Shown here in pieces: positions 1-20,144 of a stretch of DNA of 59,463 bases. The stretch covers positions 1 through 59,463 of the forward strand of contig JBBSVO010000011.1 in assembly GCA_038046805.1 (NCBI GenBank), read 5' to 3'. A program made the translations under genes and the position numbers. The notes below the pieces were generated by a model. That model worked only from the letters and a program-made list of their open reading frames with translations. It was not told the DNA's origin and ran no database searches. The DNA comes from Candidatus Micrarchaeota archaeon (lineage in GTDB: Archaea > Micrarchaeota > Micrarchaeia > Anstonellales > Bilamarchaeaceae). The stretch's first letter is position 1. Each line of letters begins with the position of its first letter.

Positions 1-23
1 TATCTGCTTTCTTTTGAGTCGTG

Positions 24-55
24 GAAGCCCACGGCTTCAGCCGTGGGTAGTTCAC
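24..55 (+). mobile_element. IS200/IS605-family right-end-like motif (subterminal hairpin ending TCAC)
   Basis: GAAGCCCACGGCTTCAGCCGTGGGTAGTTCAC: perfect hairpin CCCACGGC/GCCGTGGG followed by TTCAC, the usual form of tnpB-element right ends; element body would lie upstream of the window. Confidence 0.7.
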
Positions 56-144
56 AGGAAGAATTCTGATCCTTAAATTTGCGGATGTTGCACTCATTTA
101 CAAATAATTCGTTTAAATTTGTTCCGCAATGCAATACTTTTAAT

Positions 145-459: not shown

Positions 460-1538
460 CTAGGTCGTACCAAACAGTTCGTTAAATCTCGCAACAACTC
501 TTTTCCTGAATTTGTAGGTATTTGCAAATTCGGCATATGCAAGCCAACCTTCCAAACTCAGTACGACTTCGGCTCGCGTCATCTCTCCTTTATCGTATTT
601 CTGCTTAAACTTGTTGAGACGTTTCCAGATCCTCCTTGCATTACTTTTCTTCAATAACCGATATTTTGAAAATATCCTGAAACCAAGAAATGTTATGCCT
701 CTTCTCAATGGTACAATCCTTGTTTTTTCAGGATGCAATTCAATCTTCAATTTCTCAATTAAAAATAAGCTTATTTCATGCTCCCATTTTTCTAGCACTC
801 TTTTATCTCTGTGCAGAATAACAAAGTCATCCACATAACGGATGTAATAGCTGGCGTTCAACTGGTGTTTCACAAAATAATCAAGCTCACTGAGATAAAA
901 ATTAGCGAAGAACTGAGAGGTTAAATTACCCAAAGGCATACCCCTACCATTAATTTCAGTCTTATGATTCTTCAAAATAGTTTCAATAAGCCATATTACC
1001 TTCTCGTCTTTGATCTTTCTTCGGATCAATTTCAGTAAAATTTCGTGGTCAACGGTTTCAAAATAATGACGTATATCGGCTTTCAAAACATAACCAAAAA
1101 CCCCCTCCCCCCCCCCCCCCCCCCCCCCGTTTCGACTTTTTGGTGGCTGGAGTAAGCACGTCTCAGAAATTTCTCGAACCTTTTTATTGCAGGGTGGGTT
1201 CCCTTACCTTTTCTGTTTGCAAACGAATCAAAAATGAAGCTACCGCCAAGGATGGGAGAAACAATATTGCACAGGGCATGATGTACAACCCTGTCCCTGA
1301 AATGAGAAGCACCTATTTTTCTTGTTTTGGGGTCTTTTACAATGAAAGTTGTTATCGGCCTTGGACGATAGGTAAATGTTTGAAGCTCGAATTGTAAATC
1401 AAGGAGATTTTGTTTGAGGTCTGCTTCAAATTCAATGACATACTCCTTCAGGGTCTTTCTTTTTCTTGCTTCAATAAAAGCGAGTTCTAGATTTTCGTAA
1501 GATGTGAGCTGTGGGTATAGATTATTGCAGCACTTCAT
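460..1538 (-). CDS. DGR reverse transcriptase, frameshifted at a G22 homopolymer (1107-1128)
   Basis: N-part KDPKTRKI..FRDRVVHHAL; C-part YVLKADIRHYF, GMPLGNLTSQ, YIRYVDDF; one extra G (or two fewer) joins the ORFs into ~359 aa; adjacent TR/VR. Confidence 0.93.
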
Positions 1539-1590: not shown

Positions 1591-1680
1591 ATTTCGAAAC
1601 GATTGGACGGCTGATTGTTGAGGTTGACGTTGCGACGGTTGTTGTCGTTGAAGTTGTTGTTGCCGCGCCTGAGAAGGCCG
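1591..1680 (-). repeat. DGR template repeat (TR), 90 bp
   Basis: AAC-rich; aligns to 2025-2108 with substitutions only at TR adenines plus one 6-nt indel. Confidence 0.95.
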
Positions 1681-1873: not shown

Positions 1874-2683
1874 CTAGAGTAAATTCTGCGATCTGAGAAC
1901 TCTCAGGGCAGTTTGAATCTGTTCATCTGATCCGGTAATGACTACTTGCCCAGGTTGTGTGACTGCTACGAGTTTAGCAGCACCTGCCACAAGCGGCGCG
2001 TTGCCTTCGGCAGCTTCTCTTACCACCCCGAAACGACTGGACGGCTGACCGAAGAGGACGACGCCGCGACGGCCGTAGTCGCCGAAGAAGCCGCGCCAGA
2101 GAAGGCCGATTGTAGCAGAATCAGACACCCAGCTTTTGGTAGTTTCATCGCCAACTGCTTCAAACAGACCGCCATCCCTGCTTTTAATCTTGAATCTGCG
2201 TGTCTGACCGTTCAATTGTAAAAGCACTTCGTCAGCTTCGCCCATTTCTTCATCATTGCGTATTGGTTTTCCTGTTTTTGCATTGGATAGCATTAGCAGA
2301 GGTGTTTTACCATCTGAAGCAAATCCGTGATCAGACAATATCATAGTATCGATAAGAGCAGCTTCCTCCTTACCAGGTCTTACAATAACGGTTTTCATAC
2401 TACCTTCAAATTCACATTGAGATTCAACACTGGTTCCAAGTGGTTTGCCTTTGTTTCCGACTACAGCTGCAGTGCCAGTGTACAGAGGCCTGGCGCTTAG
2501 AATCTCGTCTGGAATGGGTTTGAATCTACCTTCCTCATCCTTTCCAAGAAATACTTCATTGTAGAATGGCGAATTTGGCATTATTTTTCTGCCTGCCACG
2601 TTGCCTCCATGAATTGCTTCCAGATAGGTTTGCCTCTTGGAGACTACTTCAACTCTTTGATTAGCGACTGCAACAGCACCCAT
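1874..2683 (-). CDS. DGR target protein (269 aa; VR resembles C-type-lectin-fold variable region)
   Basis: Contains VR GLLWRGFFGDYGRRGVVLFGQPSSRFGV; upstream GAGGTG RBS. Confidence 0.9.
   Translation of the reverse strand: MGAVAVANQRVEVVSKRQTYLEAIHGGNVAGRKIMPNSPFYNEVFLGKDEEGRFKPIPDEILSARPLYTGTAAVVGNKGKPLGTSVESQCEFEGSMKTVIVRPGKEEAALIDTMILSDHGFASDGKTPLLMLSNAKTGKPIRNDEEMGEADEVLLQLNGQTRRFKIKSRDGGLFEAVGDETTKSWVSDSATIGLLWRGFFGDYGRRGVVLFGQPSSRFGVVREAAEGNAPLVAGAAKLVAVTQPGQVVITGSDEQIQTALRVLRSQNLL
2025..2108 (-). repeat. DGR variable repeat (VR), 84 bp
   Basis: 20 of 24 aligned TR adenines substituted; 0 of 60 non-A positions differ. Confidence 0.95.
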
Positions 2684-2924: not shown

Positions 2925-4488
2925 CTATTCTACAACTTCAACAATAGCTTTTTGCTGTTTTTCGCTAGCTAGAACACGCACTTTCTTGTGATAAACAAAA
3001 ATAGCTCCGCCACGATCATCTTTGACGATATCAGGTTCGCCCAATTTTGTCCAGTCGATTTCACTCCCAATCATGTATATTTTTTTGGTGGTGTCCAACA
3101 ATCCCTTGAAATGGCCTTCCGGGGCATCGCGGTGATCGATCTTGCCTGAAATACCTGGAGTTTCGACAAGCACTCTAGCGTTGTTGATATCTGCATACTC
3201 TATCGGCCTTCTTTGGATGGATTTTGTAAGGTCTCCTACGTAAACAACTACATAATCTGTCAATCCTGCATTCAGCTTCCTTAGTAGTGGGATGTCCTTT
3301 TCGCTTCTGGCAAATAGGACGGTGTCGCTCTCCACCTCCCCACTGCCTCTTACATAGCCGCCTATGGTTATCGTCTTTTCGCTTTCGACAACTTCTTTTT
3401 CTTCATGCTGCTTCTTATCAGCATCAGCAATCTGAAGAATTGTAACACATACTTGGCCTTCTTTTTCTGCGATAGCATATTCCACGTACTGGGGCTTACC
3501 AGCTAGCCGTTCTAGTTGCTTCAATTTGGCAAACAACCAGGCGAGATTTTCATGCAACACCGCTTTCGGGACAATCTCGAGATGGTCTGTGTCATTTCTG
3601 GCAACATAAAGAAGGGTTGCATCGCTCGCATAAAATTTCATCTCCCTACCAACAAGGCCCGCACTAAGACGTTCGTATTCATCGTATTGGACAATATCCA
3701 GAGGGCGTTCATCGCTTTCCTTTATCTTAAGTCCCTCCCCTTTCACAGTGCCTGTTGGCAGGCCAGCGGCAATAAGGACATAGCCTTCGCCATCACTGCA
3801 CGACGTATATCCAAAGCCGCCGTATAATGGTCCGAATCTTACAATTCCGCTGTCGTGGTGCTTTTTGAAAGTCTGGCCAAAGACCGGTTCTATCATGACT
3901 GCTATACCACCAGGCAGACCCAGATCTTTCCTGAAAGCGATTGCAGAATCTGAGAACTCGCTTACCATAACCGCTTTTATCGCTTTCACTAAGCCATCTA
4001 GAGTCTTATCTTCGTTATTAATATTAAAGCAGAATTTGCTATCATAAATTCCTGTTCCCCGGCAGTCTCCATGAGCCGAAGACCTTACCGCTAACGGGAT
4101 TCCCTTGAAATTCCTATGAATTTGTTTTACGAGTTTTCGCAGCACTTTCATTTCAGCTTGTGCAAACTCCCCCCTCCCCAATTAACTGTTGTAATTCTTC
4201 CGAAGAAGCGCCCCGTACCAAAGCGGCGTTGATTCCGCATCTTTCCCTAAACGCTTCGAAGAAGCCCATTGCCAAAACTATTCTCGGATTGGCAACAAAA
4301 CCAGCTTGTTCGATGGCCCATGTTTTTTGCATAAGTTCTTCGGCCTTAGCGCCAATAGAACCACAACCTATAATCGTCCAGAATTTTTCATTAAGATTAG
4401 AAATCTGAGTTGTTCTGGCTCGTAATACATTCGCAAGGCTTTGTCTGACATTTGCTAGATTAACCTCTGGAGAATGCAACTGGGTCAT
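2925..4488 (-). pseudogene. PEP/pyruvate-binding (PEP synthase/PPDK N-terminal ATP-grasp-like) protein, frameshifted at G-rich tract ~4169-4179
   Basis: IGAKA in upstream ORF (4153-4488); LAVRSSA..GIYDS and PQYVEYAI..ILQ in downstream ORF (2925-4181); removing one G fuses them. Confidence 0.7.
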
Positions 4489-5803: not shown

Positions 5804-6571
5804 CTAAAATTCGGGCTGAATTATATATAACCTGCTTATTGTTTTTTTTATCTCATTACGAGTGATAACTTTTCCGTATGGCTTGTATGCTTCTCTAAGT
5901 TCCCTGTTTGTAACGAGGATGTAATAATCTGAATAGCCTTCTTTGGCACGTTTGAATTTATCCCTAAGGTCTTTCTTTCGATAGTGGGAACCTGTTTCAA
6001 CTTCAAAAGCGATATCATTTGCAACAATGTCTGGCCTGACGCTAGCGTACATGAGAGCATCATGACCGTACTTTTCAATCTCTGACTTCAAAATCCTGCA
6101 AAAATAATAATGGATGGAGCTTTGATTATCCGGGGATTTTATCAAAACTCTTGGCCCTTTGCCTGGACCGAAGGGGTTGGTGGTTATCTCAACATATCCA
6201 TTGTTTTTACACATGTTTATCTGGTCTTCGGTCAAATCCTTGGCATAGAAAAACCCATCATGAAGATTGATTTTTGCTGGTTTGGACGGTGGCAAGTCTG
6301 GCTTTTTTACTGGCACAACAGTGTTACCCAGCTTTGGCACTGGTAAATTCATTTCCCAGTCTATTCTCTTCAGGTCGTCTTTACTTAGTCGATAAACTGG
6401 CTGATGTTTTGGTAAATGATCACGAATTGTATCGACAATATTCAAAAATATTATTACAATCCCATATCCAATTACAAACGGTCCAATAATCAAAATTACT
6501 AAAGTTAAATCGATTATTAGCAACGCACCTTTTGCCAGGTACCCAAGCAAATCTTCAATTGCCATGCTCAA
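5804..6571 (-). CDS. Membrane-anchored protein with C-terminal PD-(D/E)XK-like motif
   Basis: N-terminal hydrophobic helices; RPDIV..IAFEVETG; overlaps integrase stop. Confidence 0.55.
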   Translation of the reverse strand: MSMAIEDLLGYLAKGALLIIDLTLVILIIGPFVIGYGIVIIFLNIVDTIRDHLPKHQPVYRLSKDDLKRIDWEMNLPVPKLGNTVVPVKKPDLPPSKPAKINLHDGFFYAKDLTEDQINMCKNNGYVEITTNPFGPGKGPRVLIKSPDNQSSIHYYFCRILKSEIEKYGHDALMYASVRPDIVANDIAFEVETGSHYRKKDLRDKFKRAKEGYSDYYILVTNRELREAYKPYGKVITRNEIKKTISRLYIIQPEF

Positions 6572-7779
6572 TCCGCCAGCAGTGTTTTATCCAATCCCTT
6601 CTCAACAATTTTCTTTAGCAGGAAATTCTTTACCTCATCGTCTTCTATGAGTTTGTTCATGAGATTATCGCTTTTCTGGCGTTCTTTTTCTATTATAGAA
6701 ATGAAAGACTCATCCAATGGCATACCGCACTTTGTGCAAAACTTGGAAATCGGAGAGTTGCTTTCTTTGCATCTTTGGCAGGTTTTGAGCTTCAGTTTTT
6801 CCTCCTGTGTGCTCTCAACCTGAGCCATTCCATGCATTTTCAGGAGCGCATTATCAACATCTCTTCCAGACAGATGGACGTAGGTAGCCGCCATATCCGA
6901 GCCTTGGACCCAGCCGAAATACTCTTTCATTTGGGCCTCTGTCAATTTTCCGGCCATCGCAGTTGCCCTGCTATGCCTGAACAAATGAGGGTATATCTTC
7001 TTCTGGATGCCTGTCCTCTTGGCAATCTTCTTTAGTGTTGCATAGATCGTGCCATGCCTCATGCATTTGTCGGTTTTCTTGTTGTTTTTGTATTGCAGCC
7101 ACAGGCTTGCTTCCGGGTCATTGGCACGGGGATGCGCATTAAGCCAGGAAGCCAGAATAGGAGACGAACTAATCACCCTTACTCTCCTATCGCCTGTTTT
7201 GCCAGTAACGCGCAGAACAGCTCCATATTGGTCAAAACTAACGTTTCTCATTTGCAACGATAGCAACTCGCCTACCCTGCAACCAGTCTCGTACAAAATC
7301 AAAATCAGTGTTTTATCCCTAGGGTTAATCGCAGCTTCAGCCATCCTAAGGACTTCGTCTTCGCTCAATAACTCTTCGGGCAGCTTATGCCTGTGATTTT
7401 TCATGCTCATTTTCATCCAGGTAACTTCAGGAGGGAAAAATTCGTCATTTCCCTTAAGCCATTTGTAGAACATCTTCAAAATGACTTTATAGTCGTATTT
7501 TGTATGTTCTGCGTATTTTTTCGTTTCCAATTCGCCGACCAGGGCGATCAGATCCTCTTTCGTCGCCTCCTTGAACGGCTTTTTGAGCCATTTTGCCAAG
7601 AATCTCAGGCAATAAACAGTTTTGGCAACCCTCCCGTAGGTTACTCCTTTTGCCAATTTTACCTTACAAAAATAGGTTATGGCTTCGACATTCTCCTTGC
7701 AAACCCCATCCTCAACCCTGAGTTTGGCTATTGCCTGCTCCAACCTTCGCGGATAGTCATATATGTCTATTTTACCCAT
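6568..7779 (-). CDS. Tyrosine recombinase/integrase with C-terminal Zn ribbon
   Basis: LYETGCRVGEL, GKTG, HLFRHS, FGW, YVHL; CQRC..CTKC. Confidence 0.95.
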   Translation of the reverse strand: MGKIDIYDYPRRLEQAIAKLRVEDGVCKENVEAITYFCKVKLAKGVTYGRVAKTVYCLRFLAKWLKKPFKEATKEDLIALVGELETKKYAEHTKYDYKVILKMFYKWLKGNDEFFPPEVTWMKMSMKNHRHKLPEELLSEDEVLRMAEAAINPRDKTLILILYETGCRVGELLSLQMRNVSFDQYGAVLRVTGKTGDRRVRVISSSPILASWLNAHPRANDPEASLWLQYKNNKKTDKCMRHGTIYATLKKIAKRTGIQKKIYPHLFRHSRATAMAGKLTEAQMKEYFGWVQGSDMAATYVHLSGRDVDNALLKMHGMAQVESTQEEKLKLKTCQRCKESNSPISKFCTKCGMPLDESFISIIEKERQKSDNLMNKLIEDDEVKNFLLKKIVEKGLDKTLLAD

Positions 7780-19975: not shown

Positions 19976-20042
19976 CCCCCTGCATTTCACTTTTTGTTAT
20001 AGTCTTAAGGCTTATATCGTGGTTGTCGTAGGTTGGACAATT

Positions 20043-20144
20043 AGTCTGGAAGGTTGGCTCGCTTACGCCGAATTTGCCAACACCTGTAAATTCAGGAAAA
20101 GGATTGTTGCACTGTTTAACGAGTTGTTCGGAATAGAATCCTAG
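20043..20144 (+). pseudogene. Relic 3' end of a second DGR reverse transcriptase
   Basis: Translates SLEGWLAYAEFANTCKFRKRIVALFNELFGIES*, 27/30 aa identical to the C-terminus of the RT at 460-1538. Confidence 0.9.

Follow-up and report, generated by a model that had tools for sequence, protein, structure and literature searches.

The DGR locus

The window, by which we mean the whole 59,463-nt stretch of DNA analysed here, lies on contig C11 of the 1.2 Mb, 86% complete genome (G000) of a groundwater Candidatus Micrarchaeota archaeon and contains a reverse transcriptase (RT) gene split by a G-tract, together with a template repeat (TR), a variable repeat (VR) and a target gene (Table 1). Both RT halves match RT models, an RVT_1 match is present and the catalytic motifs LKADI and YVDD are in place, with 8ub7 the best PDB match of the RT family profile (E 2.5e-63). 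Over positions 2029-2108 every mismatch between TR and VR (17/17) falls at a TR adenine. Judged from its sequence, the element is a member of the diversity-generating retroelement (DGR) family. It resembles the DUSEL4 nanoarchaeal DGRs, as described in the available parts of PMC4372165, in its adenine-only TR/VR pair and possibly also in its putative IMH- and IMH*-like ends and a candidate GRA-loop hairpin in the target gene, the inverted repeat here being weak alone and not above shuffled sequences (z 0.63). It is also like DGR architecture A, which has no accessory gene (PMC5758913, in the sections available); Avd (PF22296), present in 74% of DGRs and not required for membership, was not found in the 86%-complete genome. 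A promoter scan at the locus was negative, and the target protein had no Pfam, NCBIfam or PDB sequence match, its nearest Atlas clusters being archaeal and unnamed.

Table 1. Features of the DGR locus, in window coordinates.
Feature	Position	Strand	Remarks
RT N-terminal half	1129-1538	-	ATG at 1538; DPKTRKI and FRDRVVHHAL motifs
RT C-terminal half	460-1100	-	Intact, other frame; LKADI, GMPLGNLTSQ, YVDD
G-tract junction	1101-1128	-	Assembled as G22-A-G5, in flexible RT loop; out of frame
Template repeat (TR)	1595-1680	-	AAC-rich
IMH*-like CGAAAT	1591-1596	-	TR 3' end; resembles DUSEL4 TGGAAT; putative assignment
Variable repeat (VR)	2029-2108	-	Inside target gene; 6 nt shorter than TR
IMH-like CGGGGT	2025-2030	-	VR 3' end; resembles DUSEL4 TGGGGT; putative assignment
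Short inverted repeat, GAA loop	2000-2014	-	Downstream of VR, within target gene
DGR target gene	1874-2683	-	269 aa

The shortfall of the VR corresponds to an in-frame loss of two codons in an AAC run (1653-1662 vs 2088-2089). The only other RT match in the genome, at 20037-20140 (+), is an orphan fragment comprising the last ~32 codons of a second DGR RT, 84-87% identical, and is probably the remnant of another element. A tyrosine integrase with a zinc ribbon is encoded ~4 kb upstream of the DGR (6568-7779, minus strand), and the DGR may be situated in a mobile island. A 45-nt hairpin-like sequence at window positions 11-60, which we take to resemble an IS200/IS605-type end, recurs at C3:134364-134408.

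The tract and its probable length

On the forward strand the tract reads C5 (1101-1105), T (1106) and C22 (1107-1128), giving G22-A-G5 on the coding strand directly before GYVLKADI; C22 is the longest G/C run of the 1.2 Mb genome, followed by C14, C9 and C8. As assembled, the N-half frame reads through the tract to a stop at 1085-1083, where the original prediction had placed termination with G22. Joining the two halves takes a junction length of 2 mod 3, so that G20 or G23, within the string as written, would indeed restore one frame, and the halves are, as had been claimed, otherwise intact, both remaining open.

The exact string is another matter. While the window has a junction of 28 nt, three further records of this gene (P0125, P0002 and P0124), identical to it over the C-half, have junctions of 15, 18 and 24 nt. 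Among contigs of eight sequencing runs, two bridge the tract, X5 with 18 nt and X6 with 22 nt (10 and 6 letters fewer than the window, the lengths being inferred from net gap counts); those of X1-X4 break within the tract (4/8 runs), and those of X9 and X10 fall outside it. All six versions of this species' junction (28, 24, 22, 18, 18 and 15 nt) are out of frame. Protein records of the gene read R-GG-ERIF, R-WGG-ERIF and R-GGGGGG-RIF, all three continuing ...R-I-F-G-Y-V, which requires an A where the window shows the last G of G5. Close relatives have G(n)-CGAAC-G(G/A)-ATTTTT at the junction, and the remaining 33 G/C runs above threshold at this site (site 1; threshold defined below) are 8-12 nt long. 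From the shorter junctions of the other records, the R-I-F reading and the 8-12 nt runs of relatives, we infer that the true sequence behind G22-A-G5 probably has a shorter run, of about 7-16 G, and then some bases wrongly called as G. Miscalls of this kind after G-runs occur in short-read data. The C-run of another locus, L213, is inflated in a similar way, at a contig end.

We conclude that the repeat and the frameshift are real, whereas neither the length of 22 nor the long poly-Gly loop is likely to be; the spread of lengths among this species' records (15-28 nt) may largely be sequencing or assembly error. The predicted frame break is thus present in the assembly and in 6/6 records, although G22 itself is not what other records hold, and the poly-Gly loop that was foreseen for the full-length RT is probably unreal, as three records show R-I-F. 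The caveat attached to the prediction, that the run length might be a sequencing error, has been borne out by those shorter junctions. None of the six records holds an in-frame allele of this species, and the best 120 homolog matches include no full-length protein with more than 77% identity to its RT.

A repeat kept in the same loop across Micrarchaeota

Searches of 61 and 401 genomes found 75 RT loci, 65 of which were scored with both halves. Loci lacking the N-half or anchor (10/75 genome and 10/80 metagenome loci) were left out, as were a separate RT fragment (L025) and five duplicate loci, and L001 and L003 were excluded from p-values. A repeat was counted where a G/C run of at least 8 nt, or a dinucleotide repeat of at least 10 nt, lay between the RF..F helix and LKADI, a threshold chosen after the first loci had been inspected. 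So defined, repeats are present in the loop of 46/65 loci, as G-runs, C-runs, (AG)n and one (AC)n. The search for repeats at the same position in homologous RTs, which the original prediction had called for, was therefore positive, but its view that the length of the run is itself the oddity fails: what is odd is that 9-12 G or (AG)n are kept at one site across the phylum.

The presence of a repeat goes with a broken frame. Repeat-bearing loci are out of frame in 41/46 cases (25 by +1, 16 by +2), with five in frame, one of them containing a stop, while 18/19 repeat-free loci are in frame, the sole exception having G7. The association of frame with repeat gives a Fisher p of 2e-10 and the out-of-frame count of 39/44 a binomial p of 8e-4 against one third, both values overstating the case since kin are not independent. 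Across the 65 loci, the 5,726 nt of junction contain 47 repeats, whereas the 61,101 nt covering the remainder of the RT and the 185,985 nt of flanking DNA contain none. The same pattern is seen in a metagenome set that overlaps in part and has 70/80 loci scored (repeat-bearing, 17/22 out of frame; repeat-free, 46/48 in frame). Some in-frame loci have interrupted runs, such as L032, whose G5-T-G4 corresponds to G11 in the similar context of L067. In a quick tree of 51 C-halves the repeat types and ON/OFF states are interleaved, the tree being mostly unresolved (7/48 inner branches starred) and too weak to count origins of the repeat types. One genome (G282) contains two related RTs with AG tracts (L055 and L059), one out of frame and one in.

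Strain pairs, selection and activity

In two strain pairs the RT genes are identical apart from one AG unit, within the limits of assemblies, in which consensus errors are possible: L220 has (AG)6 and is in frame whereas L221 has (AG)7 and is out, over an RT of 1,071 nt, and L059 has (AG)10 and is in frame whereas L227 has (AG)9 and is out, over 1,047 nt. Their VRs have diverged, with 12/16 (L220/L221) and 12/15 (L059/L227) of the differences at TR adenines. A third pair, L062 in frame and L237 out, has 3 differing bases in 2,533, including one frame-flipping AG unit. AG repeats are outside the two-colour poly-G error. A genome of the same genus as the window's (G001) contains two copies flanking an NN gap, one with G9 in frame and one with G11 out of frame (L003). 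Locus L208, near-identical to the G001 locus, has G10 and was considered as a further ON example; it was rejected, since it is out of frame and has a further 1-nt deletion upstream.

The broken genes otherwise look well kept. Complete out-of-frame repeat loci lack any further stop in 31/35 cases, compared with 15/17 for in-frame repeat-free loci, and a TR/VR pair is present in the fetched DNA of 27/41 out-of-frame loci vs 11/18 in-frame repeat-free ones. Six pairs in which both members are out of frame give pN of 0.05-0.11 and pS of 0.51-0.79 over both halves; dN/dS values of 0.000 reflect saturation and were not used. By these sequence measures the out-of-frame RT genes are under purifying selection and show no decay. 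In the model of a full-length homolog (P0012), residues 134-147, at pLDDT below 50 against a mean of 87, form the sole disordered internal stretch, and the loop aligns with a 17-residue gap in BPP-1 bRT. Being flexible in the model and absent from BPP-1 bRT, the loop should tolerate changes in length.

Diversification has also occurred in the window's own species. Runs X1 and X5 contain a second VR allele with 13 differences, 13/13 at TR adenines (p about 6e-10, with A at 21/80 TR positions), and since the differences are confined to TR adenines, this RT or a relative has been active in the species. These VR alleles could predate the present state of the tract.

A proposed phase-variation switch

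We propose, at a probability of roughly 0.7, that the tract acts as a heritable phase-variation switch of the slipped-strand type, leaving the mutator silent in the majority of cells and active in a minority. Slippage during replication would shift the run by one unit, and one length in three would yield a full-length RT of about 355 aa. Cells with the full-length enzyme would rewrite the VR, and a slip back to OFF would then fix a good variant and avoid continued loss of adapted alleles. If OFF lineages are favoured after success in this way, the assembled consensus would be expected to be mostly OFF. A tract of this kind would work like an SSR contingency locus, with which it shares an intragenic simple repeat that determines the frame by its length and is kept at its site in relatives and rare elsewhere; in relatives, ON and OFF alleles are found among otherwise identical sequences. 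The phase-variable switch of the original prediction has therefore gained comparative support from a conserved site, several repeat chemistries and one-unit strain pairs, although the species for which it was made is in frame in 0/6 records.

Alternative explanations

The absence of an in-frame allele, both from the six records and from the best 120 matches, could instead point to leaky expression, in which RNA polymerase slips on out-of-frame DNA to make a little full-length RT in every cell, so that the tract is a dimmer and no switch. Such slippage could rescue the +1 and +2 states alike, and the out-of-frame share of 39/44 is far above the two thirds expected, yet the RTs are under selection. 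Slippage or frameshifting in mobile-element genes offers a parallel, in the available text of PMC5574713 and PMC5009743, where a gene out of frame, broken at a repeat, is nonetheless maintained by purifying selection. Unlike those genes, the loci here have G/C or dinucleotide tracts rather than A/T, both offsets, and DNA lengths that vary by strain. Transcription insertions in homopolymers of E. coli and Buchnera, according to the same part of PMC5574713, were all at A or T runs, the archaeal polymerase not being covered; the tracts here are G/C or AG/AC, with none of A/T, and the differences in DNA length between otherwise identical RT genes speak against a purely transcriptional device. We consider leaky expression the strongest of the alternatives but unlikely as the explanation, though leak and DNA switching can coexist.

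Could the repeats be no more than a hot spot for loss, arising in a tolerant loop and inactivating RTs that are no longer useful, without regular reversion? A tolerant loop would permit repeats, about half of candidate DGRs were discarded as broken in surveys (PMC5758913, in the text available), and further stops are present in 4/35 out-of-frame loci. Extra damage of this kind is no less frequent in in-frame loci (2/17), and out/out pairs at saturated synonymous distance retain low pN. Drift does not explain repeats in 46/65 loci when 247 kb of control DNA contain none, and we regard loss as improbable.

Programmed ribosomal frameshifting, or a split RT whose separately translated halves assemble, seems somewhat less probable again. 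The break lies in a surface loop, and in the window a TTG start shares bases with the N-half stop (TTGA, 1086-1083). That overlap hangs on a length that is probably miscalled, and a split there would cut the strand with the first catalytic Asp. A frameshift signal is hard to reconcile with both +1 (25) and +2 (16) offsets, repeats of four unrelated kinds and the lack of a shared slippery codon pattern, and no stable structure was found past the tract (z 0.27). A pure artefact, in which the organism's own gene is in frame and the frameshift here and in relatives comes from poly-G miscalls, is very improbable: the window string is probably inflated and G-miscalled, as in L213, and contigs break inside the tract in 4/8 runs, but (AG)n and (AC)n, which are free of two-colour poly-G error, have the same out-of-frame bias, 6/6 records of the gene are out of frame, and such errors need a repeat at the site, where positional enrichment is extreme.

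Relation to known systems

Poly-G/C phase variation at contingency loci is known from Campylobacter and Neisseria. The phase-variation switch proposed here is like SSR contingency loci in that an intragenic G/C run of ~9-12 nt, or a dinucleotide repeat, flips the frame by single units and is genomically rare. It is unlike them in that the gated gene is a mutator enzyme, so that one mutation mechanism controls another, and it differs from the Campylobacter and Neisseria loci in its host, an uncultured DPANN archaeon. Compared with BPP-1 bRT, the Micrarchaeota RT has an extra loop with a length-variable and usually frame-breaking repeat.

DGR regulation in print, in the part of 10.1101/2024.11.15.621889 available, is transcriptional or stated as unknown. 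No description of a repeat-gated DGR RT was found in the literature searched, a scope outside which the CPR/DPANN survey of Paul et al. 2017 (Nat Microbiol) and its supplements fell; nor does one appear in the available portions of PMC5758913, PMC8144416, PMC4372165, PMC10053308, PMC8632793, PMC8867640, PMC6851277, 10.1101/2024.11.15.621889 and 10.64898/2026.02.18.706561. The novelty is one of known parts combined anew, with what would be phase variation placed on a hypermutator enzyme.

Repeats in other DPANN and at further sites

Among 80 mostly non-Micrarchaeota DPANN loci, a set ranked by full-length match and so biased to in-frame genes, the site-1 repeat is present in 3 and absent in 77, indicating that the repeat at this site does not extend to DPANN in general. 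For a class holding a Woesearchaeota genome, sampled through 201 genomes, a repeat lies at the break in 14/16 fetched split or partial RTs (three of the 16 from genome G414), with two breaks at site 1 and 12 at a second site near residues 176-201; intact RTs of the class have a second-site repeat in 5/30 cases. The second-site repeats (L194-L202, L205-L207) are G9-12, AG and CT.

It seems to us an even bet that DPANN have repeatedly put contingency repeats of varied chemistry into different tolerant RT loops, making a two-tier mutator in which slippage would license bursts of hypermutation in a minority and selection would keep successful lineages OFF. If true, this would amount to a general genetic control on DGR activity, overlooked since frameshifted RTs are dropped from surveys. 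A repeat switch would imply that many of the 'broken' DGRs so dropped (PMC5758913, as far as the available text goes) are live. It would also be a concrete mechanism legible from sequence, with a phase that could be read on each molecule and related to VR diversity in metagenomes, and would represent a candidate phase-variation system in uncultured archaea.

Runs of G9-G11 also stand 3-5 codons before the RT start in L102, L111, L114, L228, L229, L249, L259 and L262, and a G9 lies near RT residues 240-249 in L099 and L131; both positions are possible further switch sites. Upstream of the DGR target in the window, a gene with a PPDK_N domain has a +1 frameshift at GGGGAGGGGGG (4160-4185, minus strand; ORFs 4153-4488 and 2925-4181), and this break may be either a miscall or a second contingency site. 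At the corresponding position the gene's paralog on contig C4 has G9 and is in frame.
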